From Nitrospirales bacterium (GTDB taxonomy: Bacteria; Nitrospirota; Nitrospiria; Nitrospirales; UBA8639), in NCBI GenBank assembly GCA_963422365.1, contig OY729426.1, forward strand, positions 1,056,001-1,120,000: a stretch of 64,000 bases of DNA, written 5' to 3'. Made by a program: the position numbers and the translations under genes. How positions within the stretch are numbered: the first letter of the stretch is position 1; each line of letters starts with the position of its first letter. The notes below the pieces were generated by a model. That model had not been told where the DNA came from, ran no database searches, and was given only the letters and a program-made list of their open reading frames with translations. This document shows positions 15,665 through 53,973 of this stretch, in pieces.

Positions 15665-15865
15665 TAGAAGCTATCTCATAAATGGATGAGGGCATTTGCT
15701 GGCCACTCCCTTGATGTCATTCTGAGCCGTAAGTCTATGTCTTTGTCGTGGCGCCTCTCATGGTGCCTGTCTTGGCCGCATCAGATGCGGCCCTGCAGTT
15801 CGGGTTAGGGATGAGATTCTTCGTTGCAGGATCCTCAGAATGACATCATGATGAGATATCTTCCA
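15665..15865. mobile_element. MITE-like element, copy 1
   Basis: Starts TAGAAGCTATCTCATAAATGGATGA (identical to 43967); imperfect inverted end TGAGATATCTTCCA; internal GTCATTCTGAG/CTCAGAATGAC inverted repeat. Confidence 0.65.
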
Positions 15866-29815: not shown

Positions 29816-30777
29816 AGCGTCTCCATAAACTTATCGAGTTGCCAGTAGTTTCCTTCTAATGAAACAGTTCGTTCACCAGCGCCATTTCCTTTTTTGACTG
29901 TGACTTTCGTTTCGCTTGCATTCTCTTCAAATAAACAATATTTGCCAGCCCTATTCAGCTTTTCCGTACAAGAATCTGTTGCCTTTTTTGTGATAATCAC
30001 AATAGGAACCCCTTCTTTGATTGCGTTATCAATCTTGGGTGTCAAATGTTTGTCATTAAAACCGAAGCCAACAACTAAAAAACTGCGTGCTTTCTCAATA
30101 GCGTTGTCCGATTTTCCAATAAGGGTTCTGTATGGCTCTTGGAATGCCTCATCACATTTATTGCGAGCAGGTAACACCATGCCATATTTGAGTGCGTTGA
30201 AATCGTGCTCACACGGTAAATAAAATAGGTCGTTGTTTTCATCAAAAAACCAGTTTAGTGAACCATGAACTTTTATTAAATTTATTATTTTTTGTTCTCC
30301 AAAAGCCTTTGGAGAAAATCTTGACAATGATCTTCCGGTGAATCCATCTGTGAAATTGTCATTGGATTGCGACAGTGCGTATTCCAAAACACGATCATAA
30401 TTAGTCGTCACGATGTCAATTTTACATGGATGAGGGTCGTAAAACTTCTTTATCATTTTGGTTATGGCCTCAAAATAATTTGTATCTTGTATGGATTCCT
30501 TTAGGCAGGCCATATCCCTTTTAAGAACTTTCTCTCTTGTAATCTTTCTGATTTCATCAGTCTTTGTTTGATCTTGAATTTTCCCCAACTCCATTTCTAA
30601 GTCAGAGTCTTCGTTAAGGCTATCCAGGACGGGTTTAAGCTCTTCTTTTAACTCATCCATACTTGGAAGCCCATATGGGATGGTTGCCCCTGAACCCCAA
30701 ATAATTACAGGAGGATTGCTTAGAAAATTTTGGACGAGTTTAGACACATCGTCTTTCTCTTCATCGCTATTACTCAT
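29812..30777 (-). CDS. SIR2-like (SIR2_2) NADase of a Sir2-HerA system
   Basis: WGSGATIPYGLPSM, TTNYDRVLE, KVHGSLNW, GFGFNDKH; 4-nt overlap with herA. Confidence 0.9.
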   Translation of the reverse strand: MSNSDEEKDDVSKLVQNFLSNPPVIIWGSGATIPYGLPSMDELKEELKPVLDSLNEDSDLEMELGKIQDQTKTDEIRKITREKVLKRDMACLKESIQDTNYFEAITKMIKKFYDPHPCKIDIVTTNYDRVLEYALSQSNDNFTDGFTGRSLSRFSPKAFGEQKIINLIKVHGSLNWFFDENNDLFYLPCEHDFNALKYGMVLPARNKCDEAFQEPYRTLIGKSDNAIEKARSFLVVGFGFNDKHLTPKIDNAIKEGVPIVIITKKATDSCTEKLNRAGKYCLFEENASETKVTVKKGNGAGERTVSLEGNYWQLDKFMETL

Positions 30778-31850
30778 GGTTTCTCCATTCTCCAGTCAGC
30801 AGTTTCTGCATCAATCCGCGTTTTTGGGTGCGGTATTGTTCAGCAAGTTGCTGAAGGAGAGTGCCTTCGCGTTTGGCGGTGTTGAGTGTATTGGCAATTT
30901 TCTTCTGTTTCTCCAAGGAAGATAGTGGGATTGGTCTTGTTCCTAAATCTCCAAAGCTTACAGTTTCCAGCACACTGCCTTGTGCGCTATTTTTTTATAA
31001 GATGAAATCCAATGCAAGAAATAATCGCTGTTAATCTTGGTTTCGTTTAACTTGAAAACAATATACATTGGACTAAGTGTGCCAATCGTCCAGACGTGCA
31101 ATGGAACCAACATTGATACGTGAAGGGGTATAAGCATACTCGCCATGCTTGACGATTTTATAGTTGGATAAATTTGCGCTGGCTATGCGGCGTTCAATCT
31201 GATCTTCTGGCAGAATAAACCCGCTATGGTTTGTGACGCTCAGCATACGCTCCATAGCATTATCGTGGTTTCGCGTTGAGACTTCGATAGCGAAGTCTGA
31301 TGTCTGTCTTTCGTGATGGCTCGTTTTGTTTATCAGCGATGTCACAAACCATCCAAATTGTTTCTTCTTGGCGGCGATGAGACGTTCGGTTTTCTCAATC
31401 GCCATGTCCCATTCATTCAATGGTTCAGGCTTTTTTTGTTGGACAGAAAACGCCGGATAACTGACTTTGACGTTGCTTAGAATTGCGGGGTTGAGAGAGG
31501 GCATGGTTCTGCCAACTGCTCTGCTTCTCATGTGGTGTTTGAATTTTTCCGTGCTGAAAAAGTATCTCAGGTATCGGCTATCAATGATCTTATGTGATTC
31601 AGATCTCACTCTGAATAATCGACCGGAAACCAGCCCTCCTCTTTTTGGGAGACCGGACTGTTTCTATCTACTGATCCCACCCGGCTAAAGAGAATATCTC
31701 CTTCTTGGACAAGACATTGAGAGAGTCGCTTTTTGTCGTAGTCAGAAACCAAGGGCAAGTTCTCCTGAGCCAATCCGCGTTCGCCTAGATGCTCAACCGT
31801 TACTATTGGCGTGCCAGCTGACTTGACCTAATCGTGCTTGTGGAGTTGTG
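30770..31850 (-). pseudogene. hsdS: Type I RM specificity subunit, fragmented
   Basis: KRGLMQKLLTGEW, EKQKKIA, PSRINVGSI, LSPMYIVF in separate frames. Confidence 0.85.
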
Positions 31851-31927
31851 CTCCGAAAGGCCCGGTCTTTACAGAAGCAATCTCTCTCAATCTCACCCTG
31901 TGCCAGCCCTTCGGCAATGCTTCATAT

Positions 31928-32990
31928 TTAAAGGTTTTTCGACTCATCGCTGTTTCCCAACCCTGCTTTTTTATCCAACACTCTCGCTAGGGCCTCAATC
32001 TCTTTCAGGTCTTCGGCATCAGTTTGCAGCGCTTCATCCTTGAGGCGGTGGGCGGCACATTCTTGGTAACGGCTCTCTGCCAATTTTTTGGCAACTTCCG
32101 CTTCCACTTTTCCTGCATGAGTCAGCAGATCATGTTCGTTGAATTGTAAAAAGACATCCAGCTTGTCTGCCACTGTTTCATATTCATGGTTCGGTGTCTG
32201 TTTGCTTGATCTTCGGCGTAATCCAAATACATTGTTACGATGCGGTTCAGTCCACTGATCTCTTTTTCTTCAAGATAGTTTTTAGCAATGGATCCGTCAC
32301 CTTTTCGCACTTTTGCACCTTGCCAGGAAGTCAGACCCATATTCGGTTTTTGAGAGTCGCTTCTGTCCGTGCTTAACTCGGCGGCGGTTTTGCCCGTTAC
32401 CGACCAGAGCATGTTGTTTTGCACTTTTTTGAAAAAGACGTGGGCTTCGTCGGATTTTTTGTCGTAGTCTATGGCCGTGGCGTAAATATCCCGCACTGTT
32501 TGGTAGAAACGTTTTTCCGACGACCTGATGTCGCGGATACGTTCCAGCATTTCATCAAAATGGTCAGGGACGGATGAGCTTTTGTCAGGCGGGTTTTTCA
32601 GCCGCTCATCGTCCATAATGAAGCCTTTGATGATGTATTCCCTGAGCCGTTGTGTCGCCCAGATGCGGAAGCGGGTAGCAATGATGCTTTTTACGCGGTA
32701 GCCGACGGAGATGACCATATCCAGATTGTAGTAATCCAGTTCGTGCCTTACTTCCCGATTTCCTTCCAGGCAAACTGTCAAAAATTTCTTGACAGTTGAA
32801 TTCAACAACAATTCCCTTTCTGCATCAATGTTTTGAATATGAAAGCGTATGTTCTGCTTACTGATCTGAAACAATTCCGCCATCATCTGTTGAGTCACCC
32901 AGAGTGACTCATCCTCAAGACGAACTTCCAGCTTTATTTTTCCATTTTCAGTCTGATAAAAAAATTGTCGCCTGATGCCATGCCGTGCTC
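31928..32990 (-). pseudogene. RhuM-family protein, frameshifted
   Basis: YNLDMVISVGYRVKS, FRIWAT, ERIRDIRSSEKRFY; C-terminal LDVFLQFNE in another frame. Confidence 0.85.
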
Positions 32991-33002
32991 TTGTTTTGTA
33001 GC

Positions 33003-38057: not shown

Positions 38058-38411
38058 GGCAAGGGACGTTCGTTAGGCGTCGGTCGGCAGAATGGAGAAA
38101 CACATGCCATGAGGCATGTCCCTCGTATCAGGGTACGGGGCAGGCTCTGCCTCCGGGCAGGGCTGGGGCCGAGACCATCCATCTTTTCGTAGTAGGAGCA
38201 TCTCATGCGGTCTGACAGAAGGTGCCACATGAGCCTGCCCTTGACCTTGATCGGGGGATGGCGCGGTTACACGGGATTACAAAAGGGCCGCGACACGGTT
38301 CTACATCAATGGAATCAACAAATTCCCGACTCCCCATGCAGCCCCGCTCACCCGAATTGTGGTTCGTGTTCCCAGGAGCATCTTCCACACCTAGTGATGG
38401 AATGGTAAATC

Positions 38412-38507
38412 TTAGTTCCGTCGACGAGCAAATTTCATGCGTCGGCGAAGTTTTTTATGCTTATGCTTCCGCATTTTTTTTTGTCGTTTTTTGACTACAC
38501 TCGCCAT
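38412..38507 (-). CDS. Small basic AURKAIP1/COX24 (bS22-like, DUF1713) protein
   Basis: MASVVKKRQKKMRKHKHKKLRRRMKFARRRN with RBS AAGGAG; below the ORF-track length cut-off. Confidence 0.85.
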   Translation of the reverse strand: MASVVKKRQKKMRKHKHKKLRRRMKFARRRN

Positions 38508-38753
38508 TCACACTCCTTTTTTTCCTCACGGGGAAGGTGGTTGCGCTTCTGGGGTCTTACTGAAAGCAAAGAGAGATGTGCTCCAAGGTGCGGAGTGGTT
38601 TCACAGGTAACATAGCGTTTCAGGAAGTGTCAAGAAAGGAACGGGGTCTGTCTCCATGAGTCGTCAGGTTGCCTTGGAAGTAGCAGGATCCTCCATGGGA
38701 GTCAGGGCACGTTCCCTCTCCCGTTGTACGGACGGAACAGGTAACACAGGTTT

Positions 38754-39543
38754 GTCTTAATCCCTTCTTCATCAGGTCTTCACTTCAGACCTTGCGCCCC
38801 CGCCCTACGGGCGGGGGGGCGATAAATGCTGATTAATATTCCGCCTCACGCGCGGCGATCATCTCGCGGGCCTCATCCCATTTGGGTTGCCGGCGCGTGG
38901 CGGCACCCACGCGTTGGATGATGGCCTCGGCATTGCGTTTGCGTTCCAGAGTCCCCCGGCCGCCGCCGGCGATCTCAAGCGCAAACTCGCTGAGCGAGCG
39001 CCCCATCCGAGCGCTATGGCACCCCACGCAGGCGGTGACCAGATTGCTCGGATGAGTATTGCCGTCACCGCCGGTCACATCGTCGATGAGCAGGCCGGCA
39101 CACTCCTCATCCTCGATCACCTGCCCGCAGTATACGCAGGCCAGGTGATCCCGCAGGTAGATGCTAGTTATGGTGGTTATATCCATTGTTTCCCCCTTGC
39201 GCCCCCCGCCCTACGGTCTTAATCCCTTCTTCATCAGGTCTTCACTTCAGACGAAGAATAAAAATCGGGAACGGGCTCTCATCGACCGTCTTAATCCCTT
39301 CTTCATCAGGTCTTCACTTCAGACCCGGATCGGCCGTTTAATGATTAGCATAAAATTAAGAAGGTCTTAATCCCTTCTTCATCAGGTCTTCACTTCAGAC
39401 TCCGCCGAGAATCAGAGAGGGACGTGCACGGGATCGTCTTAATCCCTTCTTCATCAGGTCTTCACTTCAGACAATGGAGATTAAAACTTATGTGAGTACC
39501 GGGAGAGTCTTAATCCCTTCTTCATCAGGTCTTCACTTCAGAC
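38754..39543 (-). CRISPR. CRISPR array: 6 identical 37-nt repeats, spacers of 425, 35, 39, 35 and 34 nt
   Basis: GTCTTAATCCCTTCTTCATCAGGTCTTCACTTCAGAC at 38754, 39216, 39288, 39364, 39436, 39507; the minus strand ends ATTAAGAC (type III handle), so the leader is on the right next to cas2. Confidence 0.97.
38833..39186 (-). CDS. HNH-fold zinc-binding protein embedded between two CRISPR repeats
   Basis: RDHLACVYCG...IDDVTGG...NLVTACVGCH; RBS AAGGGGG 5 nt before the ATG. Confidence 0.8.
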   Translation of the reverse strand: MDITTITSIYLRDHLACVYCGQVIEDEECAGLLIDDVTGGDGNTHPSNLVTACVGCHSARMGRSLSEFALEIAGGGRGTLERKRNAEAIIQRVGAATRRQPKWDEAREMIAAREAEY

Positions 39544-39719
39544 TCCTTTCTCGAAAAAACCCTTTTCTTAGAATGGCTTGCAAAGGGGGTTGCAGGAAAT
39601 GTCCCAGGCTGCAAGAGGAACGTCACTATCATAACGCCGTGCATGGGGGACTCGATCAAACGAAGAAAAACGAAGTATACGATTTTTTTAATCAATCGTC
39701 AGCCTCATCCCCTAGGGAT
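39544..39719 (-). promoter_or_regulatory. CRISPR leader
   Basis: Non-coding, A/T-tract-containing region between cas2 and the first repeat. Confidence 0.7.
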
Positions 39720-40043
39720 TCACGGTCGGTCGGGGGGATCTTGGATCAGTGCCAATCGACTCTGTCCGTTTTCGATCAGTAACGTGTTTGTGGCAAAAAA
39801 CTGTTGTCCCAATAGGGTCACGTCACCGGTGGCGGGCAACGGGTACGCCCGAACGTCATCGTGTTTTGGATCAATCATTGCCTCAAGCTCAGACAGGATG
39901 TGATTGAGTCGGGAGTGACTCAGCGGCGCGGCGAAGACGGAATACTGTACCCGACAAGCGTGCTGACACAGATATCTGGCGACCCGTCCCAGGCGCTTGG
40001 GGTCTGCAATATCGTACGCAACAAGATACAATCGCTGACTCAT
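39720..40043 (-). CDS. cas2: Cas2
   Basis: YLVAYDIADPKRL, RVQYSVF, DDVRAY. Confidence 0.93.
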   Translation of the reverse strand: MSQRLYLVAYDIADPKRLGRVARYLCQHACRVQYSVFAAPLSHSRLNHILSELEAMIDPKHDDVRAYPLPATGDVTLLGQQFFATNTLLIENGQSRLALIQDPPDRP

Positions 40044-40804
40044 ACGAAATCCACCAAAAAGCCTTGCAGACGGCTGGTCAGCCTGCGCGCAATTCGCGCC
40101 AACCGGTGACTGTGTTGCTCAAATAATGCCACAACGTCACGATCATTGATACGCTGGTGTGCCGGCCGCCGGCTTAACCATTCACTCAGGGGCAGTTGCA
40201 AGGACAGGGATAATAAATCAGCAGAATCAAGGGGTATGTTCAGCCGTTGCTCAAGATAGAGACTGCGTTCGGCACTCAGCCCTGCTTGCTGTAAGACCTC
40301 GTTGGCGAGATTGCTGCACAACCCATGCAAGCGTCGTTGCAGATCACTTCGCTGGCGCGTGTCAACGAATTGTTCCATATGGCGATCCAGCCTGGCACGG
40401 ATTTGCTTGAGCGAGAACTGGTCCGATTGCACGTTCAATGTGCGGCACAGTGCTCGTCGAGCACGGCTGGCAGCCGCAGCGACCCAGATCTGATAACGGT
40501 CAGGCCAGTCGGGGCGGTCCAGGAGATCACGCAGGTGGGTAAACAAGTCATCGTTCGCTCGGCTACGACCAAACACATGCGCCCTGATTGCGCCGTCATG
40601 CCGTAAGAAGGTGACGGTAATGCCACGCTCTGCGCAAGCAAGCAGAGTGGATGTCGCGCATTCCGGTGACCCGGAAATGACAAGACGGGACATACGGCGC
40701 AAGGGGACAAGCACGGCAGCCTGCCCTGATGCCGCGATACTCAAGGATGGGCCATCTAGGTTGATCTGCATCCCTTTCCGACCATGAATGTAACAGGGCT
40801 TCAT
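40040..40804 (-). CDS. Degenerate Cas1-like protein (N-terminal beta domain kept, catalytic motifs absent)
   Basis: DGPSLSI..VPLRRMSRLVISG..LLACAERGITVTFL resembles the adjacent Cas1 N-terminus; no EG/H/DxxE motifs. Confidence 0.7.
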   Translation of the reverse strand: MKPCYIHGRKGMQINLDGPSLSIAASGQAAVLVPLRRMSRLVISGSPECATSTLLACAERGITVTFLRHDGAIRAHVFGRSRANDDLFTHLRDLLDRPDWPDRYQIWVAAAASRARRALCRTLNVQSDQFSLKQIRARLDRHMEQFVDTRQRSDLQRRLHGLCSNLANEVLQQAGLSAERSLYLEQRLNIPLDSADLLSLSLQLPLSEWLSRRPAHQRINDRDVVALFEQHSHRLARIARRLTSRLQGFLVDFV

Positions 40805-41766
40805 GCGTCATCTGCCTCGGGTAACTCAGGGGCAGCATCCAGCAGGGCCCGTGCGATCTGATAGCTGCGAAGACGCAGATACCGTCGCCATGGCCCGGCA
40901 CATGCGTCATACTGTTCAAAAAACGTCCGGCGGCCGTTTTTGTTGAGCAGGCAGCTTTGTCCTTCGCGGCTGAAGTGGCCCGTGCTCAACAGACGTTGGC
41001 GAAATACATGCCAGACCCAGCGGTCGACCCGCGGCCGCAATGGTTCAATCACGTCACAGGCCAAAGATTGGCGGCCATACGCAGGCTCATGGTAAAACCC
41101 CAGCAGCGGATCGAGTCCTGCTCCATGACAGGCACGTACCGCTTCATGGTGTAGCAGGGTATACACCAGCGACAGGCAGGCGTTCACCGGGTCGCGCGGG
41201 GGACGACGATTCCGCCCGGTGAAGTCCAGACTGCCGGCAAACAGGTGCTGAAACCCGGCAAAGTACATGGCCGCTGCCGACCCCTCCAGACCACGCAACA
41301 CGTCCATGCTCACGGCCTTGTGCACGGAGGGCACGAGAGAAGCCAGCCCTGTTGTCGCGGTACTGAGCGGGTGACGAAGATCGAGTCGGCGTAACAGCGC
41401 GGACTGTAATAGTTTGTGCTGCGCGGTGATTTTCGCCTGCACCAGTTGCCGGCTCCAGTTCAGGCGTCGTTCGGTATCATGCCAGAGCTGATACTGGGCA
41501 AGCCGGCGTCGTGCATCATTATGACCCGGACACAAGAGTTGCAGACGTCGCTGACCTGCGCGCCCGTGCATGATGGTGACGCCTATGCCGCGCTGCCCCA
41601 GTGTTCCCAGCAGACGGCTGTCCAACGTCACCTGACTGTGGATGACGACCCGATCCAGCATTGTGAGCGGCACACTCTGTGGTCCTGCATCGGGTCGCCG
41701 GACCAGCAGTCGTTTCCCGTCCAGTTCGAGTTGCAAGTCTTTGCGATCAATGCATAACGTCAGCAT
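40801..41766 (-). CDS. cas1: Cas1 integrase
   Basis: LRGLEGSAA, RNRRPPRDPVNACLS, GFYH, SLACDVIEPLRP. Confidence 0.97.
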   Translation of the reverse strand: MLTLCIDRKDLQLELDGKRLLVRRPDAGPQSVPLTMLDRVVIHSQVTLDSRLLGTLGQRGIGVTIMHGRAGQRRLQLLCPGHNDARRRLAQYQLWHDTERRLNWSRQLVQAKITAQHKLLQSALLRRLDLRHPLSTATTGLASLVPSVHKAVSMDVLRGLEGSAAAMYFAGFQHLFAGSLDFTGRNRRPPRDPVNACLSLVYTLLHHEAVRACHGAGLDPLLGFYHEPAYGRQSLACDVIEPLRPRVDRWVWHVFRQRLLSTGHFSREGQSCLLNKNGRRTFFEQYDACAGPWRRYLRLRSYQIARALLDAAPELPEADDA

Positions 41767-41771
41767 CGCGT

Positions 41772-42053
41772 TCAGCCGATGTAACAGTAGGATTGATCTT
41801 CGGGTGCGACACCCTTGCCCAAGGTCTTGATGTCATCCGCAGAGGCCAGCGGCAGGAGCAGAAACCGATCCTCATCCGGATCGATGATCCTCCCGATGGT
41901 CTCGACCAACTCCCGCCGCTCGGTGCCGGTCAGAAAACACTCGAAGACGGATTTCTGGCGGCCACAGGCAAACCCTTTCAATACATACAGGGCAGCCCGC
42001 AGGCGGCTGGTGTTGCTGATGTCATAGGCGGCAAGATAGAGTCGGCGTTTCAT
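41772..42053 (-). CDS. cas2: Cas2
   Basis: YLAAYDIS, QKSVFEC, EDRF. Confidence 0.93.
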   Translation of the reverse strand: MKRRLYLAAYDISNTSRLRAALYVLKGFACGRQKSVFECFLTGTERRELVETIGRIIDPDEDRFLLLPLASADDIKTLGKGVAPEDQSYCYIG

Positions 42054-42092
42054 GCCGACAAGTTAAACATATGGAAGCGCACTTTGCCGGAT

Positions 42093-42138
42093 TGGCAAGC
42101 TTGTCGTGGCTGGACAGTTGCTTTGAAGACTCTATAAT
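42093..42138 (+). promoter_or_regulatory. Palindromic box plus sigma70-like promoter for the CARF-RelE gene
   Basis: TGGCAAGCTTGTCG 42093-42106; TGGACA 42111-42116; TATAAT 42133-42138. Confidence 0.65.
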
Positions 42139-42175
42139 GAAAGCAGCATCTCACATTGAACGTGGAGGAAGTCAT

Positions 42176-43291
42176 ATGAAACCTAAGTTTGTGCTGTCAC
42201 TTTGCGGGACCAGTCTGCTCACGAATGGCGCAACAGGCTATGAACGGGCTCTTATCACTCGTCACGCCAACGTCAAAGACGAACAAGATATCAAGCATGA
42301 GGAACGCGAAAGCCTGCGAGCCAGGATTGACCACGTATACTCAACATTACAAGAAGCCGCTGAACACCAAATCACAGACATGTCGGCAGAGCTGAATGCG
42401 CTGTACAAACTGTATGACGGCCAACTCGGTCAGGCTGTCAACGACCAGCATTGGCTGCTGTGTACTGATACGTGGCTGGGGAAACAAACAGGGAAACTGA
42501 TACAAGAACAACTGGAACGTCGTGGGATTTCCTCCGTGCAAATTTGTCAGCCAACGGATCTGCGTACAGAGGAACTTCTCACCTTTCAAAGCGCGTTGTC
42601 AGATCTGGTGAAATGGTGTGACGAAACGATAGAACCCTGTCGGTCTAGCTGCCATATCGTTTTCAATCTCACGGGTGGCTTTAAAAGCATTCAGGGGTTT
42701 CTGCAAACGCTGGCGATGTTTTATGCTGATGAAGCCATCTACGTCTTTGAATCCGGCACGGAATTATTACGGATACCCAGATTGCCGATCAGGCTGGACA
42801 CGGACGACGTGGTACGTCAACACCTTCATGTCTTCAGGCGTTTGGCCAAGGGTCTCGGTCTTGATGAACAGTGCCAGCTTGATGATATTGATGCTATTCC
42901 AGAGACGTTATTGCTTCGCCTTGATAACGATGTCGATTTGTCGCTTTGGGGAGATTTGGTCTGGAAGCAGACGTATAAAGATGTTTATGGTGAAAAACTC
43001 TGGCCTTCTCCAAGCAAAAAAATCATCTACGGCGAAAAATTTGAGGCAAGTGTTGCATCACTTCCACCTGACCGGATCGGGCAGGTCAACAGTCGTCTGG
43101 ATCAGCTTGCCGTCCATCTTGAACGTGGAGGGCACAATTTGTCTTCCCTGGATTTCAAACCGCTGAAGGGCAGGATTAAAAACTATACTCATGAGCTTGA
43201 CGCCTGGGCCGACCAAGACGCCAAAAGGATGTATGGACGCCTTGAAAATGGTGTTTTTACAGTCGAGGTCCTTGATGAGGCTTTGCATTAA
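42176..43291 (+). CDS. APE2256-family CARF protein with C-terminal RelE-like domain (Cami1-like effector)
   Basis: CGTSLLTN, SAELNAL, TDTWLG, FNLTGGFKS, YVFES; RelE-like tail LDFKPLKG..HELDAW..AKRMYG; RBS GGAGG. Confidence 0.82.
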   Translation: MKPKFVLSLCGTSLLTNGATGYERALITRHANVKDEQDIKHEERESLRARIDHVYSTLQEAAEHQITDMSAELNALYKLYDGQLGQAVNDQHWLLCTDTWLGKQTGKLIQEQLERRGISSVQICQPTDLRTEELLTFQSALSDLVKWCDETIEPCRSSCHIVFNLTGGFKSIQGFLQTLAMFYADEAIYVFESGTELLRIPRLPIRLDTDDVVRQHLHVFRRLAKGLGLDEQCQLDDIDAIPETLLLRLDNDVDLSLWGDLVWKQTYKDVYGEKLWPSPSKKIIYGEKFEASVASLPPDRIGQVNSRLDQLAVHLERGGHNLSSLDFKPLKGRIKNYTHELDAWADQDAKRMYGRLENGVFTVEVLDEALH

Positions 43292-43961: not shown

Positions 43962-44110
43962 ATGATTAGAAGCTATCTCATAAATGGATGAAGGCATTTT
44001 TCTGACCGCCCGACCTTGCTGTCATCCTGAAGTGCAGGCGCTGCTTTTTCAGTGAGCGATTCTTCGTCGCCCGCTCCTCAGAATGACATATTGAGACAGC
44101 TTCTAATCAT
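43962..44110. mobile_element. MITE-like element, copy 2
   Basis: 19-bp terminal inverted repeat with one mismatch (ATGATTAGAAGCTATCTCA / TGAGACAGCTTCTAATCAT); internal GTCATCCTGA/CTCAGAATGAC. Confidence 0.7.
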
Positions 44111-45305: not shown

Positions 45306-46739
45306 TCAATTTTCTCCTTTATAAATTTGCAAGGCCTTTTTAATCGACTTGCCTGGTGGTGGGTTATCCCACCACCCCTTTTCCTGCCAGCGTGCCTGAA
45401 TGTCTGCTAACGCAGTCTGTTTTAGGTCACCGTCTTCAATTGCTTGCCAGGATTTTGCTAGTGGTTGGCCACGCAGGGCTTCATCAGCTGAAGCATGGTG
45501 CTGTTCTTGAATGGCCGCAATTTGTTCTTCCACCCATGGGCTGCGCACGACGTCTGTCGAACTGGTTTTTTGACTTGCGGCACGTATTTCTGTCTCATCC
45601 GACCAGGGTGACAATCTTATCCAGCCCAGTGGTAAACGGGGATTGCCTTGTACGGCTAATCTCCTGGTTTTTGGAAAATTTTCAGATTTTCCGAGACGAT
45701 AAAGTCCACGCATTTTTTCCTGCGTTTCTGCATCTTGCCAACCGCCCGTCATTCCCCGCCAACCACTGCCCCAAGCCAATCTTAGATAAGCGGCATTCTC
45801 TGTTTGTTGAATGGTTTCCCGTAATGTTTCGCATTGTTCGACGATTGTTTGCTGCTTGTAACGCTGAAAAAATTTTATTTCCTGTTCGAGGATATGTCGT
45901 GCGTGACCGTTGAGCTTTGCACAGAGTCCGGCAAAATCTGCCGGTAATAACTCAAGACTGTGCTGAGGCGCGTACCAACGATTTGGGTCTTTCAGCAGGA
46001 ATCGATCCCACTGCAGTGACATCGCTGCGATTGCGGTAGGTGCTAGAGTCTCGGCGTAAATACCGGTTGCGTCCTGCCACCTGTTCTCGTTTTTCCTGTT
46101 AGACATATTGCGCCATTTCGCGAACTGTCTGTCATTGGATCTGGTGATATTTAGCCAACGAACGTCGGCAAGACACAGATCACTGGTTTGGAAGTTAGCA
46201 TCACCTACGTGCAGAGCACGCAGCAGATCTTTGTTTGGATCAGAACCAAAGACATATTTTGTGATAGCAGTTGCTGCCATCTTAGGAGAACAGGTAGGCT
46301 TCTTCTGCGTATTATCCCACCGTGGAAGACGGCTTGCTATCCCACTCGGTCTGCTGTGCAGCCATGCGGCTAACAGTGCGGTGCGGATAGCGCCTTTTAT
46401 TGAACTGCCCGGCAGGTAGGGATGCAACATGGCATCTTTGATAAACTCCCTGAATTTCTCCGGCAGGGCCATTTTCCCCTGCAAATAGGGAAGTGGGTAG
46501 CCGTAGTATGTGCCTGCAAGCCTGACAGAATCACTCAGTTTGGGATTTGCTTGCAGTAGAGTATCAAGTGCTGTATGACCCGATGCAATGGCATTAAAAG
46601 TTCGGTTCTGATCGACAACAAAAACCTGTCCTCGTTGCTCCACGTAATCAAGTTCACGATATAATTCTTCCCCTGAGCCAACGTGTACCGGTGTCAATAT
46701 TTCAACGGCAAGTTGAATCGTTTCCGTTTGTCCTTTCAT
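45306..46739 (-). CDS. csm5: Csm5
   Basis: LTPVHVGSG, YLPGSSIKGAIRTA, LRLAWGSGW, FPKTRR, PLGW. Confidence 0.93.
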   Translation of the reverse strand: MKGQTETIQLAVEILTPVHVGSGEELYRELDYVEQRGQVFVVDQNRTFNAIASGHTALDTLLQANPKLSDSVRLAGTYYGYPLPYLQGKMALPEKFREFIKDAMLHPYLPGSSIKGAIRTALLAAWLHSRPSGIASRLPRWDNTQKKPTCSPKMAATAITKYVFGSDPNKDLLRALHVGDANFQTSDLCLADVRWLNITRSNDRQFAKWRNMSNRKNENRWQDATGIYAETLAPTAIAAMSLQWDRFLLKDPNRWYAPQHSLELLPADFAGLCAKLNGHARHILEQEIKFFQRYKQQTIVEQCETLRETIQQTENAAYLRLAWGSGWRGMTGGWQDAETQEKMRGLYRLGKSENFPKTRRLAVQGNPRLPLGWIRLSPWSDETEIRAASQKTSSTDVVRSPWVEEQIAAIQEQHHASADEALRGQPLAKSWQAIEDGDLKQTALADIQARWQEKGWWDNPPPGKSIKKALQIYKGEN

Positions 46740-47728
46740 GAAACAACTCCCGTTCCTATGAAAAAGCCTCTGCCGTCCCGATAGATAGGATGAGGGGATG
46801 CTTTCCCTTCCGGCGTATTGGTAGGTGTAACCTCAACCACCCGGCCGGTGAGGGACCGACGGAACTGACTGCCTTCGGTAAACATGCGCAATCTCAAACG
46901 TCGCAAACCATGATGTGCAATCCATCCTCCTCGACTCATCAGGTTGTAGCTCGATCCTTCAAGCCAAGTCCCTGAAAAATCTGTTGGGGCAGGGCTGACG
47001 AGTGATAACGCAGTAAAAATGCCGTTATCAGTGGTCTTCAACTCAGGAAAATTGTCTGCTTTTTGCCATTCGAAAAAGCCGTTGCCATTGCTTCGGTCTG
47101 CGCCGATGCCACTGTCCCCCAATAAACTGAGCGCAGCCTCGAATCCTTTTCTATCATTATCGTTGCCAAAATGTGCCAGGAAGTATAAGCCCGATTCCGA
47201 GTGGAAGTGTACGCGCCCGAAGTTGAATAATTGCCCCTCCAGCGGGGCACCACTGGCGCGGTCAGTCGCTAGCCTTGGGCGTTCCTCCTGCGCCCATAGC
47301 GTTAATTTTTCTACCTGTTTGCAGATCGCCTTGGGCAAGGCCAGTGTCGATTGAACAATATCGATAGCATCAAGGTTTAGCTGCCAGCCATTTGTCGCGG
47401 TATCGTGCCACAATTCTGGCGCTATCCATTGAATCTTTTTAAGCTTCTTATAGCTGCGCAGGTCTTTATCGGGTAAGTCCGGTGCAGTGCTTCCAATAGG
47501 GCGAGGCAAAAAGTAAGTGTTCTGAAAATAGGGGAATGCCGAACTGAGTAGGAACGGTGGTGCCGCAGCCCGTTCAGTCGCAACATTCGGTTCCAACAGC
47601 GCCCACGCTGATAAAATCGCGGCGCTCAACGTATCCGAGTGAATAAATATCTCGGATTCATCATAGAAATTGTTGCCGCGATTATCGACGTGAAAAGGCG
47701 CTGTAAACTTGAGTTTGTAGCAGTCCAT
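46736..47728 (-). CDS. csm4: Csm4
   Basis: IHSDTLSAA, LSSAFPY, GIGADRSNGNG, MFTEGS. Confidence 0.95.
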   Translation of the reverse strand: MDCYKLKFTAPFHVDNRGNNFYDESEIFIHSDTLSAAILSAWALLEPNVATERAAAPPFLLSSAFPYFQNTYFLPRPIGSTAPDLPDKDLRSYKKLKKIQWIAPELWHDTATNGWQLNLDAIDIVQSTLALPKAICKQVEKLTLWAQEERPRLATDRASGAPLEGQLFNFGRVHFHSESGLYFLAHFGNDNDRKGFEAALSLLGDSGIGADRSNGNGFFEWQKADNFPELKTTDNGIFTALSLVSPAPTDFSGTWLEGSSYNLMSRGGWIAHHGLRRLRLRMFTEGSQFRRSLTGRVVEVTPTNTPEGKASPHPIYRDGRGFFIGTGVVS

Positions 47729-47739
47729 AACAGTTTATT

Positions 47740-48522
47740 TCAGGCAACAGCTTCGGCTTCTGTAGCAGACGGCTTGAATTCATCTGGTATCTTGTAATCC
47801 GACAAATCCGCTTCCTTGTTGCCTGATTTGTATTGTTCCGCAGTCCGTTGGGTCAGTGAAGTCCTAGAAAATTTGACCTGCCCATAACCGCGCGAACCGT
47901 TACCACCGAGTGTATCCGCTTGAACCAGACGCAATCCTTCAAATAGCAGGTTGAGGAAATGCTTCTGATCATCGTCTTCAAGCAAAGTAAGAATGAATTC
48001 GAAATCAAATTCCGCTCCCGCGGGCACACGTTCGATCTGGCGTGGATTTGCGGCGGAGGTAATGCGATCAATCCAGACCTCGGTTTTGACTTCGGTCATC
48101 GGCATATCGGCATTGGGCGCTGAAAGAAGCTTAACTCGACTCGCTTTTGTCAACAGCGCATCACGAACAATCAAACGTGTTGGTTCTATTGAGTCTTCAG
48201 CCGCAACGCCAAATAGTTTGCCTAGCGACGTATCCGACTTCTTCCCCGCCAAGGCTTCCTTCTTCTCACGTATAGAGAAGCCCCCTTCGACGTTCTGGTT
48301 ATTTTCCTCATTTCCCCGAACCCGTTCGAGTAATGCCCTCATTTTGCCCCGTAATGACGAGCCTGGAATATACGGATCATTGGTTAGCGGGTTCCGCACA
48401 ACGACTGAATCGGCGCCACCGATAGCCATGCCGACGGAATTACCTCCGATATGCAACCCGGTTAAAGCTGTCAAATGACCTCGAACAAAAATTTTACTGC
48501 TTACTTTTTTGATGTCAGTCAT
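47740..48522 (-). CDS. csm3: Csm3
   Basis: TGLHIGG, IGGAD, PYIPGSSLRGKMR, PRQIERVPAG, LGGNGSRGYG. Confidence 0.96.
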   Translation of the reverse strand: MTDIKKVSSKIFVRGHLTALTGLHIGGNSVGMAIGGADSVVVRNPLTNDPYIPGSSLRGKMRALLERVRGNEENNQNVEGGFSIREKKEALAGKKSDTSLGKLFGVAAEDSIEPTRLIVRDALLTKASRVKLLSAPNADMPMTEVKTEVWIDRITSAANPRQIERVPAGAEFDFEFILTLLEDDDQKHFLNLLFEGLRLVQADTLGGNGSRGYGQVKFSRTSLTQRTAEQYKSGNKEADLSDYKIPDEFKPSATEAEAVA

Positions 48523-48524
48523 GG

Positions 48525-48926
48525 CTATTTTCCTCCTGCTGCTTTATGGTAAGCGACTATTGCTTCAAAAAATTGGCAAAATCGCTGAAACGATGCTTCA
48601 TCATTGACAGCGTCAATCGCACTATCCATCACCTTTTTCAGCTCTTTCAAACCGTCACCATGCCGGCCTGCTGCATAAGCCAACCTGGTTTTGAGAAGAA
48701 GCACTTCGCGCCGTGTGCGACTTTGCCAGCCAGACATCTCCAGCTTTTTCATATTACCGTATGCATTGCGAATTTGGCTGGTAGTAACTTTTTTAGTTTG
48801 CAGAATTTCTCCAAACCTTTCTGCAAATTGAACCATTTGTTTAGCAGTATCGTCTTGAGCAATGTAGCTTTTAATCTCTTCAGGTGTTGGCATTGGGGTT
48901 TCACCGCTTGATCTATTTGTTGGCAT
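48525..48926 (-). CDS. csm2: Csm2
   Basis: TTSQIRN, RLAYAAGR, FFEAIVAYHK. Confidence 0.95.
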   Translation of the reverse strand: MPTNRSSGETPMPTPEEIKSYIAQDDTAKQMVQFAERFGEILQTKKVTTSQIRNAYGNMKKLEMSGWQSRTRREVLLLKTRLAYAAGRHGDGLKELKKVMDSAIDAVNDEASFQRFCQFFEAIVAYHKAAGGK

Positions 48927-51498
48927 CAGCAGATCTCCTCGTTAAAAATTCGGCCCACCGGGTGGGCAGTTCCAACCATTCAATCGCTGGTCGGATTGAT
49001 TCAGTCCGGCTTTCAGTAATAGTTGCGATCAAATTGTTCAAATCTTCCTCAATAGCAGGGGTGCGACGTGCCACGCGTTTCAGGTTGTAAACCAGACGCC
49101 AGCGCCATTGTTGCCAATGTAACAGTTCACGTATTTCATCTTTCTGTAATTGTCGTTTATCACTGAGCCGTCGGAACTCTTCAACTGCAAGCACGACCGA
49201 GCGTAATCTGTCGAGTATTGCCCGATTCCCGGTTTTTTCAATAATGGTTTCGATTTGCTTTTTTAACGTCAGAGCACGAGGATATTCTTCCCAGCCGATA
49301 GTTATGCCAAGCAGCGAGACAGCATCTTTTTCACGCTTGTTACGTTTCAGTACTTTTGCGCTTGACTCAGCTTCACTAGCCAAATCGGCGGCCCGTGATA
49401 TAGGGTATTTGCCGTCAACCATGATAAGGCCACCAGAAAGTGTAAACACAGGATTGCCTGCGCAATAGCGTTGAAATTCTTGCCGAATTTTATCAGCGAC
49501 ATCCGGCAGCTCATCCCAGGAACCGATGATAAACACATCGTCGCCCCCTGAATAAATAACTTGGCTACGCTTATAAGTTTTGAGCAGCTCCATAAGGTGA
49601 CCGGCAAAAAACAGGTGTAGCTGACGGGATAGAGTAGCCACCCTGGATAATGATCCCATTTCTTCTTCTGTGCCTGTTGCGCTTGGGAATTTGAGTCCAC
49701 GAATGAATATCTCACCCAAGTTATCGACATCCAGACGTAATACACCCATACGTCGAATACCCTTAGCGTTTTTATCAAAATCATCAAATTCCCATGGGGC
49801 TGCTTCTTCTTTGTCGCGGTCCCACCTACCAAGTAACCGAAAACCACTCGCATAACCATGCTGGTTGAATTTCGGATCAGTAATTTGATTGATACGTTCA
49901 TAATAGCTGGCAGCCAGCGAGCGTAACTCACTGAATTCAGGTAAACCATTTTGTTTTGAAACATGAATATGCCAATCCGTACCAGGTAAAGAAATACAAG
50001 CTAATTCCTTTTCCTTGATACTGTCCAAGTCACTTTTCCAAACCCAGAAAAAGGCTTCTGCGTCAGTCAGGCTTTGCCCCAACTTTTGTAAATTATTACA
50101 TTGCTTACAGATTGCTCCATCATCCGTCTGGCTGATTTCGGCATCTTTATCATCCCGGCTACAAACCCTGCACGCGGAGCCGGGAGCAAGTTCTTGCGGC
50201 GTAAAAAAACTATGGTCTTTTTCCAGTAATGGGCGGAAACGCTGCTGCCGGTCACGCATCAGGTTATCATTCGCAGCTTTCCAGCGTTTGCCCATGTTGC
50301 CACTGGCGAAATCTCCACCACATACCGGTGCGATACCGGTGCCGAGAAAAATGTCTCCTTGAAATTCTTTAATCAGAGCCTCATTTATTGCCGCCATCTC
50401 GTCTTTCAATGATTGCTCCAGACAGTCAGGTATGAGCAGGTAAAATTTGCCGCCAGAAGAATAAATGCGGGCAGTGGGGTAGAGTTTAAGTTTCCGTAAT
50501 AAATGTTCCGCAACACCGTCACATAACAGTTGTATATAAAGTGATCGTCCACGTAGACCCTTGGCAGCACCTTTACGGGTAATCTTGTAGATGAAATTCT
50601 GGATACCGGAAAAATCACCACAGACCAGACGCCATTTGTGGGTGGTTTTATCATTAAATGTATCAGGCTGATCAAGTGTGTCATGATGCTGATGATGTAG
50701 AAATAAACCTTCTGCAATAGCTGCCGTAACACGCAAATGGTCATATAACGATATGTCCGGGTGGATGACGTTCGTTGCCGCTGGAACGGTAGTCAAGAAA
50801 CGTTCCATCTGTGCCAGTAGCGTCATCATGAATGAACGCAAAGCGGCCGTTGTGAGTCGGTCATATTCGGGCACCTTTTCCATTGCATTCAGCAAACCAT
50901 CAGCCAGTTTCTGATAATCGTCCGATAAGTCCGTTGGACTGATCCAGACTGGATTTTCTCCAGCCTCTATCTTGGTCATAGGCGGATCAAATGCAGTTGT
51001 CGGCAATGAAAATATATCCCGGCCAGTTGTTAAGGGGTTAAGGCCTGCCCGAAACTCGGTAGGTTTGGAAACACCATCTAAATTGATGCGTTCAAGCATG
51101 GGTTCCAGAAGAGTACGGCGATGAATATTTCGTTGATAAAAATTTCCCTGTTCACGTTCGGCACTGGCGAAATGATCAGCTGCCTGAATAAGACGTTCCA
51201 TGTCCGTAGAGGCCACATGATGATGTGCGGCCATATTGATCCAGTTGGCTGCTGCTTGCGGATCATGTTGTTCTGATGGCTGTAAAATGGGAACGATACG
51301 ACAGAGCTCTTCACAAAAACGACGGGTATGTAATACGTGCAGGTGACTCCAGTAGCCACCACTCCGATGCCAGGGACAGTCCTGTTGCCTTTGGTCCTCA
51401 TTAGCACGATATTCACCAAGCCGATTTGCTCGCTCGAAAAATTTGCCTATGTCGTGCAATAAAGCGCCAAATACAATGTGGTCATGCGGTTCCATCAT
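48913..51498 (-). CDS. cas10: Cas10/Csm1 with HD nuclease and active cyclase motif
   Basis: ALLHDIGK, ISLYDHLR, GDFSGIQNFIY, LRGRS, DVDNLG, YSGGDD; start at ATG 51498 behind an AGAAGG RBS. Confidence 0.97.
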   Translation of the reverse strand: MMEPHDHIVFGALLHDIGKFFERANRLGEYRANEDQRQQDCPWHRSGGYWSHLHVLHTRRFCEELCRIVPILQPSEQHDPQAAANWINMAAHHHVASTDMERLIQAADHFASAEREQGNFYQRNIHRRTLLEPMLERINLDGVSKPTEFRAGLNPLTTGRDIFSLPTTAFDPPMTKIEAGENPVWISPTDLSDDYQKLADGLLNAMEKVPEYDRLTTAALRSFMMTLLAQMERFLTTVPAATNVIHPDISLYDHLRVTAAIAEGLFLHHQHHDTLDQPDTFNDKTTHKWRLVCGDFSGIQNFIYKITRKGAAKGLRGRSLYIQLLCDGVAEHLLRKLKLYPTARIYSSGGKFYLLIPDCLEQSLKDEMAAINEALIKEFQGDIFLGTGIAPVCGGDFASGNMGKRWKAANDNLMRDRQQRFRPLLEKDHSFFTPQELAPGSACRVCSRDDKDAEISQTDDGAICKQCNNLQKLGQSLTDAEAFFWVWKSDLDSIKEKELACISLPGTDWHIHVSKQNGLPEFSELRSLAASYYERINQITDPKFNQHGYASGFRLLGRWDRDKEEAAPWEFDDFDKNAKGIRRMGVLRLDVDNLGEIFIRGLKFPSATGTEEEMGSLSRVATLSRQLHLFFAGHLMELLKTYKRSQVIYSGGDDVFIIGSWDELPDVADKIRQEFQRYCAGNPVFTLSGGLIMVDGKYPISRAADLASEAESSAKVLKRNKREKDAVSLLGITIGWEEYPRALTLKKQIETIIEKTGNRAILDRLRSVVLAVEEFRRLSDKRQLQKDEIRELLHWQQWRWRLVYNLKRVARRTPAIEEDLNNLIATITESRTESIRPAIEWLELPTRWAEFLTRRSADANK

Positions 51499-51531
51499 TA
51501 GCGTAATAACCTTCTCTTGATCATCGTCTTG

Positions 51532-51579
51532 AGTGTAATCGATTTCCAGATGCAATTGTTCGACGGCAAGCTTGCCGTC
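51532..51579 (-). promoter_or_regulatory. Palindromic box plus -10 element upstream of cas10
   Basis: Perfect GACGGCAAGCTTGCCGTC 51562-51579; TACACT (minus strand) 51537-51532. Confidence 0.65.
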
Positions 51580-51583
51580 TCCG

Positions 51584-52867
51584 TCATGTTTCCAGAAACC
51601 GTACCTGTTCTTTTTTCAGCGTTAACCCTTTCAACCGGCACCGCGACTCTGGAATCACGCCGATAGGACTGATCAGATAAGGGGTGGCCGGTTCCTTGCC
51701 CAGGCTTCTTTTAAGAAGCCCATTGATTTTGCTCGTTTTCTGATCCATAAAATCCTGGTCCATGCCACGTCTTAAACTGTCACGTGCATTCTCATAATCT
51801 GCGCTGTACTCACCGACAATGTGGACATATTCTTCGAGGTATTCTTCGCTGACGTTTTCCTGGGTCCAGTGTATGCCCGGAGTGCCTGCCAGTAGACGAC
51901 GGGCAAACCAGGCGTAAAAGGCGAAAAGACTGGGAGTAAGGGGCACAGGGTGGTCGCCGCAGTGAATGGTCTTGTTGTTGCTGTCGAGGATCAGTTTCGG
52001 CGGATTAACGTTGCGTTGTGTTCGGGAGACGGTTTCCGAATAACTCATGCTTTCGCCCAGTATGCTGCTATCCAGGTGCCCGCGCAGTCGCACAAAGGGG
52101 ATGTCTGCCAGCGTGATCTCGGCGTCACGGGTATGGATGGGGCGTTTGTTGTGGTCTCGCAGGACTTTCGGTTTGGGGGGCGGGTAGTAAAATTGTGGGT
52201 GTGACTCAAACGGTGGTGAGACCAGTACGTGGGACAGGCGATCCTGCTCGCGCCCGAACAGACTCATGGCGTAGCCCAGGTAGAACCCCATGGTCTTGCG
52301 GCCACCGGCGATAGAGGCGTGGATGATGGTCTGTGGATCAGCAGTCAGGCGTCGCACGATAGCGGTGATGGTATCGGCAGCGGTTTCATTGTCGGCAAGA
52401 CTGCGAATGTCGTCCAGTGGTTTCTTGTCATCCGCAGGGATCTGATGGATGGTCTCTCCGTCGAATCGGATGCCACCTGGATCGATGTCAAGATCAGCGC
52501 AGAGCCGATAAAAATGCTGTTCTTCGGGGTCGCTTTCGAGGAGCGTCAGGCGTACCCTGTCGGCTCCTTCGGCGGTGGTGATGATATGAATGGCCGTCGG
52601 GATGAATGGATCGTCTCGCGTGGCCAGTGCATAGAAGGTTTCGGTAATCACCTGTGGTGATAAACCGGCGGCACACAGCAAGATGCGTTGTGAGCAACCG
52701 ATGGGTGAGCGTGCCGCGTTTGTCACTGGATACGCCTGTCTCGGATTTGATCCAGAATATCTTTCGGTACAAGGCTGGATACGGGATGACGGCTTTTCAG
52801 TGCAGGCCTCGTTCCGGTGTCGGTGGATTGCATGACGGTTTCCATGAACGATGGTCGTTCTAGGCAA
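51584..52867 (-). CDS. NE0113-family CARF protein (Csm6/Csx14-type, putative ring nuclease) with winged-helix-like C-terminus; real start probably near 52726
   Basis: GLSPQVITET, IHIITT, DDIRS, HASIAGGRKTMG, DRLSHVLV, IPFVRLR. Confidence 0.88.
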   Translation of the reverse strand: MPRTTIVHGNRHAIHRHRNEACTEKPSSRIQPCTERYSGSNPRQAYPVTNAARSPIGCSQRILLCAAGLSPQVITETFYALATRDDPFIPTAIHIITTAEGADRVRLTLLESDPEEQHFYRLCADLDIDPGGIRFDGETIHQIPADDKKPLDDIRSLADNETAADTITAIVRRLTADPQTIIHASIAGGRKTMGFYLGYAMSLFGREQDRLSHVLVSPPFESHPQFYYPPPKPKVLRDHNKRPIHTRDAEITLADIPFVRLRGHLDSSILGESMSYSETVSRTQRNVNPPKLILDSNNKTIHCGDHPVPLTPSLFAFYAWFARRLLAGTPGIHWTQENVSEEYLEEYVHIVGEYSADYENARDSLRRGMDQDFMDQKTSKINGLLKRSLGKEPATPYLISPIGVIPESRCRLKGLTLKKEQVRFLET

Positions 52868-52873
52868 GCCCTG

Positions 52874-53854
52874 TTAATCGACGCTGATGATTGCATACTT
52901 GCCCAGCCCCATGCTGGTGTTTTTGCCCGCGTGAGTCCATTGGCCGAGCCAGATGTAGTGCCAGAAAGGCACGAGTGCGTTGCTTCCGGAACAGCCGCCG
53001 GCGCTGACCTCGAACGTCACCGTGCCCAACAGTCCGCCAAGCTGCATCAGGCTGTCCTGACGGCTGGAATAGCGGGTCCAGTCATGCCAGCGCAGTTCAT
53101 GACGTGCCACGGGTATCGCTTCAGCTGCCCGGGTCAGCGCGGCAAAGTCGGTTTCCAGCGGCGTGTCGGTGTGAAACGCGGTGAGCAGGGAGAGACGCCG
53201 CAATAACGTCGAAAAGAGGGTCTTGAACGTCAACCCGTTCGGCGTGATAAGGTGATCGCGGGCTTTCACGCGCAAGGGCGTGAGGAACTCGATTTTCAAT
53301 TGAGCCGGACAATCCGGCGGATTGCGACACTCCGGAGGTTGCGGCTGGAGATTTCCTCCTGGCCGGTAGATTGACAACCATGCATCCTGCACGTGCTGTT
53401 GAACCTCAAGTAACGTGAGTGTTCCGCGTTGTTTGCCAATACCTCGTTGGGCGGCTTGGTCAAGCGCGTGAATGATATAGGGCAGATGACGATTCCCACG
53501 TCCGAACAGCGTCATCTCCAAGCTGTGCTCGGTCTCCGCCGCCAGGGGACCGTGCATCGTGTCGCCCGGATTCAGGACGAACGGGTGTGGCGCGGCGTTG
53601 TATTTGCGCAGTTTGCCGACGCCTGGATCCGGCGGTGTCTCAAAAATATAGGGGTAGATACAACTGCGATACAACAGGCAGGGTTCACAGTGCGGTTCGC
53701 GGGTCACGCAGACCAGTCTTTTGAGGCTGTTGCCGAAGGCGCCGCGCCAAGCGGAACCGGAATAGTCCGGCAGGCGCATGGAGCCGGCTGTTCGAAACCT
53801 GAACCGATAGTGCGCCAAGGGTAATGATGGTTCGCTGAATGATGCTGTATTCAT
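52874..53854 (-). CDS. cas6: Cas6 crRNA processing endoribonuclease
   Basis: YSGSAWRGAFG, Cys cluster, PHPFV, WTRYSSRQ, HAGKNTSMGLG G-loop. Confidence 0.95.
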   Translation of the reverse strand: MNTASFSEPSLPLAHYRFRFRTAGSMRLPDYSGSAWRGAFGNSLKRLVCVTREPHCEPCLLYRSCIYPYIFETPPDPGVGKLRKYNAAPHPFVLNPGDTMHGPLAAETEHSLEMTLFGRGNRHLPYIIHALDQAAQRGIGKQRGTLTLLEVQQHVQDAWLSIYRPGGNLQPQPPECRNPPDCPAQLKIEFLTPLRVKARDHLITPNGLTFKTLFSTLLRRLSLLTAFHTDTPLETDFAALTRAAEAIPVARHELRWHDWTRYSSRQDSLMQLGGLLGTVTFEVSAGGCSGSNALVPFWHYIWLGQWTHAGKNTSMGLGKYAIISVD

Positions 53855-53973
53855 AGAAGTTTCCCGTTTGTTGCAACAACGTAACGGGTTACCCAAAGTT
53901 GTTCAACGCGAAAATTCTATATGTTACGATAGGTTATGGAGATAATGTGTTGAACCCCTTGCTTCAGGCGTTT

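Follow-up and report, generated by a model that had tools for sequence, protein, structure and literature searches.

A gene-sized unit at the trailer end of a type III-A CRISPR array, and long trailer units in the host genus

Here we describe a CRISPR array in which a 425-nt, gene-bearing insert stands where a spacer would be expected. The array lies in a 64,000-nt stretch of DNA from a Nitrospirales bacterium (hereafter the window; the host genome is termed G000) and comprises six repeats (Table 1). No second array in G000 uses this 37-nt repeat. The neighbours of the array are cas genes and an ABC transporter; cas10/csm1, csm2–5, cas6, cas1 and cas2 all adjoin it, which places it in type III-A. 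To the right of 39543 lie an AT-rich leader, whose single sigma-70-like match does not exceed chance (1.2 expected), and cas2.

Table 1. Positions of the array, its oversized unit and the adjoining cas genes in the window
Feature	Position	Strand	Remarks
CRISPR array repeats	38754, 39216, 39288, 39364, 39436, 39507	-	six, 37 nt each, identical; intervening units 425, 35, 39, 35 and 34 nt
Trailer (last) CRISPR repeat	38754..38790	-	perfect, 37 nt
Oversized unit	38791..39215	-	425 nt, GC 64%
Terminal direct repeat, 3' copy	38791..38809	-	19 nt; right arm of hairpin plus 4 nt; self-match 95% over 21 columns
GC-rich hairpin	38794-38820	-	-24.6 kcal/mol, z -3.75, without U-tail
117-aa ORF	39186-38833	-	small phage-type HNH family
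RBS-like AAGGGGG	39192..39198	-	5 nt ahead of ATG; read from sequence
Terminal direct repeat, 5' copy	39196..39215	-	20 nt; starts 1 nt before the position of the hairpin loop in the other copy
Ordinary part of array	39216..39543	-	five perfect repeats and four spacers (35, 39, 35, 34 nt)
Leader	39544..39719	-	one sigma-70-like match at 39702-39674
Adaptation module: cas2, shortened cas1-like (254 aa), cas1 (321 aa), cas2	39720..42053	-	
Type III-A effectors: csm5, csm4, csm3, csm2, cas10/csm1, NE0113-family gene, cas6	45306..53896	-	cas6 at 52874-53896

The adaptation module includes a shortened cas1-like gene (40040-40804) beside the full cas1, and only its first part is Cas1-like. Congeners also carry a second, shortened cas1-like gene (L198:996-1700, L199 and L203), and its product could be a dedicated non-catalytic subunit. 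An APE2256-family CARF gene (42071-43291) lies on the strand opposite to the cas operon; we take its C-terminal part to be RelE-like. Elsewhere in the window, a low-GC island (39-46%; 28118-33000), whose genes presumably include an ATPase, a SIR2-like ORF and broken ORFs of restriction type, is possibly a defence cluster, and dispersed small repeats (15665-15851, 43967-44094 and 38107-38270) have copies elsewhere in G000 and in congeners. Two further arrays in G000 use other repeats (G000:C1 771168-773006 and 875183-882373, with 26 and 100 repeats), and no long unit is present among their 124 units. A lone 5-mismatch copy of the repeat of the 26-repeat array is found at G000:C1 694718, and two spacers of the 100-repeat array, possibly duplicates, give the same match.

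The first-pass annotation of this DNA had pointed out two perfect repeats flanking 425 nt, against 34-39 nt for ordinary spacers, and within that insert a complete ORF with an RBS and two CxxC pairs, followed by a strong hairpin; all of this holds in the sequence. It had also placed the insert at the trailer (oldest) end, sense to the pre-crRNA, and three features agree: the leader is on the cas2 side, the repeat terminates in ATTAAGAC on the minus strand, and the degenerate repeats of congener arrays lie on the side away from cas2. Thus, the insert is the trailer unit and is sense to the pre-crRNA. The DNA beyond the trailer repeat is orthologous to that beyond the last, degenerate repeat of the congener G005. 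The GC content of the insert is 64%, versus 53% for the genome. The four ordinary spacers have no match in their own genome or in the retrieved related loci.

The two ends of the insert carry the same 19/20 nt, with a one-base difference within a run, a feature absent from the first-pass annotation. The insert accordingly reads as a putative single 405-nt hairpin–RBS–gene unit plus ~20 nt, running from one hairpin loop to a point 3-4 nt beyond the following hairpin. G000 contains no copy of the terminal 20-mer within 3 mismatches, and the 20-mer was rejected as an element repeated in the host; the hairpin was rejected as an intrinsic terminator, having no U-tail and not being called by terminator prediction. 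A scan against Rfam gave 0 matches. Pairing between the 3' end of the insert and the last repeat is predicted (38754-38835; -38.5 kcal/mol, z -5.3) and could hinder Cas6 cutting at that repeat.

The encoded protein belongs to a family with 356 relatives at E <= 0.001 (best 45% identical) and the motif W-I-R...R-L-A-I-Y-L-R-D...D-H...N-L-V-T-x-C-x-x-C-N; its best profile match is phrog_16726. Identity to the best full-length relatives is 38-50%, with both CxxC pairs (residues 17-20 and 53-56), D35 and N48 kept. The Pfam HNH score (18.4) falls under the cut-off of 21.4. A structure model (pLDDT 92.7) has Cas9 HNH domains as its nearest structures (Foldseek probability 1.00; the best E value, 2.5e-3, does not reach 0.001). 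The HNH fold proposed earlier is supported by both the family and the model, in which the protein is predicted to adopt a beta-beta-alpha-metal fold with zinc-binding CxxC pairs. The family is viral: at least 80 of its loci, the best ones retained, lie in viral contigs, where relatives often have small genes as neighbours, along with promoter, hairpin and RBS motifs that recur. By a simple rule applied with no null, 12 of the 33 viral loci examined have a repeated motif that ends at RBS+ATG in both copies.

The array copy has lost residues that its family keeps. D35-D36 stands where relatives carry D-H: among 143 aligned relatives (6 of 150 proteins, longer than 260 aa, were excluded), position 36, the catalytic histidine, is His in 142 and Asp in none. 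Position 57 is changed from Asn to His (Asn in 141 and His in none of the 143), and Ile occupies an Arg position kept in 137. The earlier suspicion of a dead nuclease is thereby strengthened, and the array copy, without the catalytic His of an active HNH nuclease, is most likely nuclease-dead. The perfect flanking repeats argue for a catalytic loss that predates capture. The N-terminus is replaced relative to the family. Immediately before the conserved core, a different frame contains a trace of the usual N-terminus (G-K-Q-W-I, two stops, L-A); a pattern of this kind arose in 22 of 20000 shuffles, but it had been chosen after being seen. The present start of the ORF may or may not have originated in a frameshift.

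A first concern is that an assembler passed through phage DNA common to two ordinary spacers, an alternative the first-pass annotation had named. One contig spans 38761-39245 in each of three runs (X1, X4 and X2; 483-485 nt) with no differing letters and no gaps. These are assembled contigs, not reads, and cover 29-30 nt of each repeat, which falls one below the bridging threshold; all three runs come from one study, and the source sample is possibly among them. The depth of the insert contig was 192 in X1 (flanks 301/271, next spacer 189), 6.7 in X4 (flanks 7.2/6.3) and 119.4 in X2 (flanks 115.2/115.2), that is, 0.6-1.0 times the flank depth. An assembly path that crossed phage DNA would be expected to branch at both ends, ~35 nt into the insert; the insert contigs contain no joint and, among those listed, no loose end falls within the insert, which argues against a mis-join. 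Two other studies contain internal pieces of the insert only (X5, 38943-39118; X6, 38991-39141), and a sample of 1 in 100 reads from the raw-read run X12 placed 0 reads on the insert. In favour of the artefact are the contig-level nature of the junction coverage, with no read bridging repeat to repeat, and the short reach into each repeat. Against it also stand the long units with decayed repeats that recur in congeners. An assembly artefact is already mostly refuted, and we regard it as very improbable.

The larger result is the recurrence of such units, a single HNH insert on its own being a curiosity. A 25-nt core of the repeat used as query returned 90 loci, and 1304 distinct units were counted in 79 of them. 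Just four have a period of at least 200 nt; three of these are last in their array, one is a lone pair and none is internal. The repeat is present in 8 of 38 host-genus genomes, 6 of which have regular units. A gapless scan past the array ends gave 7 of 41 arrays on the trailer side versus 0 of 46 on the leader side, missing G005 and L139; it was replaced by a gapped rescan, in which a further repeat was sought 150-1400 nt past each end. On the trailer side, a further repeat was found in 9 of 41 arrays, comprising 6 of 6 in the host genus and 3 of 35 others, as against a single leader-side hit in 46, of borderline score (17); the congeners are kin, five of them at a shared site, such that these counts are not independent and Fisher tests overstate the difference. 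Real hits scored 20-36, compared with a maximum of 12 in 87 trials of a reversed-repeat control. In the six genus arrays, the further repeat lies 0.2-1.1 kb past the old end. Gene capture, put forward in the first-pass annotation, gains support here, as every testable genus array has a long trailer unit, and the gene-sized units beside the same repeat that it had suggested seeking in related genomes are found in congeners G048, G039, G005, G038 and G044.

The cargo differs from genome to genome. Full-length repeats flank unrelated cargo in G000 (425 nt), G048 (1007 nt) and G039 (1073 nt), the latter two as given by their assemblies. The G048 piece (66% GC) contains small ORFs, the last of which runs into the repeat without a stop of its own, as would be expected of an arbitrarily cut fragment. 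Past it come a perfect repeat, a CARF (APE2256) gene (L198:4103-5215) that starts with an ATG 2 nt past that repeat and is present in 1 of 38 genomes, and then decayed repeats with RmuC and other genes. G039 carries an orphan 204-aa ORF bounded by repeats with intact cores. In G005, the ~650 nt between decayed repeats carry a frameshifted phage gene (phrog_4786), the two parts of which lie in different frames; G038 has a thermonuclease (SNase) gene as cargo; and in G044 a 235-nt non-coding piece is the first long unit, followed by RmuC and thermonuclease genes. Neither the G048 nor the G039 insert has terminal direct repeats, so the 20-nt repeat is a property of the G000 source and not of the mechanism.

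Several smaller features accompany these regions. Many small palindromic repeats are mixed with decayed CRISPR repeats in the trailer regions L198:8000-9900, L201:4230-4560 and L202, and a palindrome makes up one ordinary-length unit of G038. Single repeats occur in G032 and G033, at the same two sites in the chromosome (L205 on G032:C118, L204 on G032:C38, and L206 on G033). The repeat of L205 is followed by a nucleotidyltransferase-type toxin–antitoxin-like pair and that of L204 by a SLATT-like gene, and no cas gene is among the nearby listed ORFs of L206.

Genes bounded by repeats are sense to the crRNA in 10 of 11 cases, the exception being a likely gene of 163 aa in G048; this tally omits L102 as ambiguous and leaves palindrome-rich non-coding units uncounted, and the sign test covered an earlier tally of 9 of 9. 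Immunity does not explain the bias, because guiding would require an antisense insert; selection for expression may lie behind it, or a bias in capture. An ATG lies 0-2 nt past the repeat in three cargo genes (L100, L171 and the G048 CARF gene), compared with 48 of 1276 ordinary spacers. The repeat contains GAAGGGA 7 nt from its own end, which could serve as the ribosome site of the G048 CARF gene, and a Cas6 cut would remove this site. The dN/dS ratio is 0.22 for the RmuC pair (G048/G044) and 0.20 for the SNase pair (G038/G044), with 0.14-0.17 for a neighbouring control ABC gene; the RmuC and thermonuclease cargo genes are under purifying selection.

These properties speak for a working shelf of gene cassettes at the trailer, on which long pieces would be captured, read from the leader, freed by Cas6 and retained for the use of their products, with the repeat able to act as ribosome site. 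Cas6 cuts within repeats and leaves an 8-nt 5' handle, and the first-pass annotation had accordingly proposed an expression platform in which the handle, RBS, ORF and hairpin would leave the array as an mRNA-like unit. However, a co-oriented RBS, ORF and hairpin is also how a unit of a phage early cassette looks, and so need not reflect adaptation to Cas6 release; judged from the sequence, such a platform is unlikely. None of the listed runs that contain the insert is recorded as RNA; X11, an RNA run by guess, covers 38352-38612 and stops short of the insert, which bears on expression neither way. We likewise consider it doubtful that the genus array as a whole is an integron-like shelf on which an unusual module of cas1 and the short cas1 captures gene-sized DNA, the leader transcribes it and the repeat lends a ribosome site that a Cas6 cut can remove, the useful genes (CARF, RmuC and thermonuclease) being kept and toxic ones such as the HNH gene disarmed. 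The HNH cargo has lost family-invariant residues, one likely G048 gene is antisense, the G048 piece ends within a gene and the phage gene of G005 is broken. Moreover, no perfect-repeat cargo is common to different species, and the conserved genes lie among decayed repeats and small palindromic repeats, where they may have arrived by other routes. The working shelf is therefore, in our estimate, an improbable account of the locus.

No source of the insert was recovered. The viral and metagenome contigs searched contain no near-identical source of its protein and no source of its hairpin motif, and a word-indexed protein search at near and longer lengths found none. The G048 insert ORF was not found in viral contigs, the sole match of the G039 ORF is itself, and spacers compared with the inserts and with HNH-family phages gave no source match. 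The exact 37-nt repeat has no match in genome contigs, and its core has one carrier among viral contigs.

Recombination guided by spacers is a second route for phage DNA to enter an array: with two neighbouring spacers from the same phage, the intervening phage DNA would have replaced the middle repeat. Spacer–phage recombination was reportedly seen in staphylococci by Varble in 2019. For the present insert, both spacers would have been taken at hairpin hot spots 0.4 kb apart, and its two ends do lie in copies of the hairpin motif, a type of site sampled by type III-A adaptation (accessible part of PMC8860593); the scenario is also named for SiL-E1, an insert discussed below (accessible part of PMC3718332). 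Several species would each need two adjacent spacers that are collinear, on the same strand and non-protective (sense). When 122 spacers of the other G000 arrays and 1300 of related arrays were compared with the three inserts, no match exceeded 16 nt. One crossover would leave a complete spacer of 34-39 nt in two copies, whereas the G000 insert has just 19-20 nt duplicated and those of G048 and G039 have no duplication. We consider this route possible but unlikely. Still less probable is that a prophage or other element entered at a repeat, duplicating it, and has since been reduced to a remnant. Phages are known to integrate into CRISPR repeats (accessible part of bioRxiv 2020.10.09.333658), but the three perfect-repeat inserts contain no integrase remnant, the G000 insert is one continuous ORF and the repeat core occurs on just one viral contig. 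Single-crossover integration of a 405-nt circle was rejected, since it would require a 20-nt spacer, as was RNA-derived capture by an RT–Cas1, there being no PF00078 match in G000 (98.6% complete).

The reading we favour, at a probability of roughly 0.5, takes the insert as a genuine CRISPR unit of excess length: an HNH gene of phage type that, with its ribosome site, was likely cut from an early cassette and likely pasted into the array by Cas1–Cas2. Because the insert reads as one 405-nt unit plus ~20 nt, its source would be a phage early-gene cassette with repeated hairpin and RBS motifs, cut at two neighbouring hairpin copies. Cas1–Cas2 would be the integrase in a rare oversized capture, which would account for the two whole, perfect repeats. 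Whole repeats, unrelated cargo, a cut in mid-gene and no need for terminal homology are together best fitted by Cas1–Cas2 capture. Type III-A adaptation prefers hairpin-forming DNA (accessible part of PMC8860593) and early phage genes (accessible part of PMC13575424), preferences that fit both the insert ends and the cargo. In type III systems spacer lengths cluster around 36 bp, and slippage lets arrays lose and gain units (both from the accessible part of PMC9048733). The ordinary spacers, at 34-39 nt, indicate that the length ruler mostly works.

After such a capture, a ratchet may follow. Slippage from repeat to repeat would remove long units less often than 70-nt units, such that older short spacers would drop out and long units would collect at the terminal repeat and age there, the younger ones keeping perfect repeats and the older ones having decayed repeats. 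Read-through from the leader would transcribe long units; toxic cargo would then decay, and useful cargo could be kept. The array HNH copy is most likely inert cargo. Some observations weigh against capture. With no source sequence in the contigs searched, the cut points and the cassette are inferred; the open-licence literature yielded no experiment on Cas1–Cas2 integration of 0.4-1 kb in vivo; and although the perfect repeats suggest that the event was recent, the insert has no ordinary spacer on its distal side. A neutral ratchet alone does not predict 10 of 11 sense genes, nor does it give a reason for the abundance in the genus versus none in the 124 units of the other G000 arrays.

CRISPR arrays are usually taken as barriers to foreign genes, and spacers as fixed in length. 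Here, a genus has units of 0.2-1 kb in every testable array of one repeat family, with fresh, decayed and conserved ones at one site, which suggests that immune memory sometimes takes in whole genes that are then likely stuck, decayed or occasionally kept. Should Cas1–Cas2 be responsible, it would be a natural integrase for gene-sized cargo, and immune memory a route of gene gain.

Three known systems offer a comparison. SiL-E1 is a pseudo-spacer in CRISPR_2 of Sulfolobus islandicus LAL14/1, whose origin, faulty Cas processing or recombination with spacers, was left open in the accessible part of its report (Jaubert 2013, PMC3718332). The 425-nt unit is a pseudo-spacer of this kind, gene-bearing foreign DNA between identical repeats being common to both; as the same part of that report has it, however, SiL-E1 is ~2 kb long with five ORFs, is plasmid-derived with a traced source, occurs in one strain and is followed by further units (PMC3718332). 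By contrast, the present unit is phage-type, lies at the trailer end of a bacterial type III-A array, recurs genus-wide with a sense bias and has an inferred source. The question raised by SiL-E1, faulty Cas1–Cas2 processing versus recombination, becomes testable with a named cas1–cas2 module. SiL-E1 is the sole precedent we found, the open-licence literature searched giving no account of a lineage-wide, sense-biased series of long units, and nothing on long spacers appears in the accessible part of PMC8860600. The unit resembles canonical type III-A acquisition in its whole repeat on each side, hairpin ends, cargo like that of phage early regions and an orientation of which either is allowed (accessible parts of PMC8860593, PMC8860600 and PMC13575424). 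As with a canonical spacer, two full repeats flank it. It departs in length, at 425 versus ~36 nt where 1300 of 1304 related units have a period below 200 nt, and it could not guide against its own mRNA. Integron gene-cassette arrays consist of single, mostly co-oriented genes between recombination sites, downstream of one promoter. Inspection by eye, with no attC model, revealed neither attC nor IntI, and no tyrosine recombinase was seen beside the array. The long units thus resemble integron cassettes in outline, as mostly co-oriented single genes between repeated sites, but their sites are CRISPR repeats rather than attC, and their cargo is sometimes cut mid-gene.
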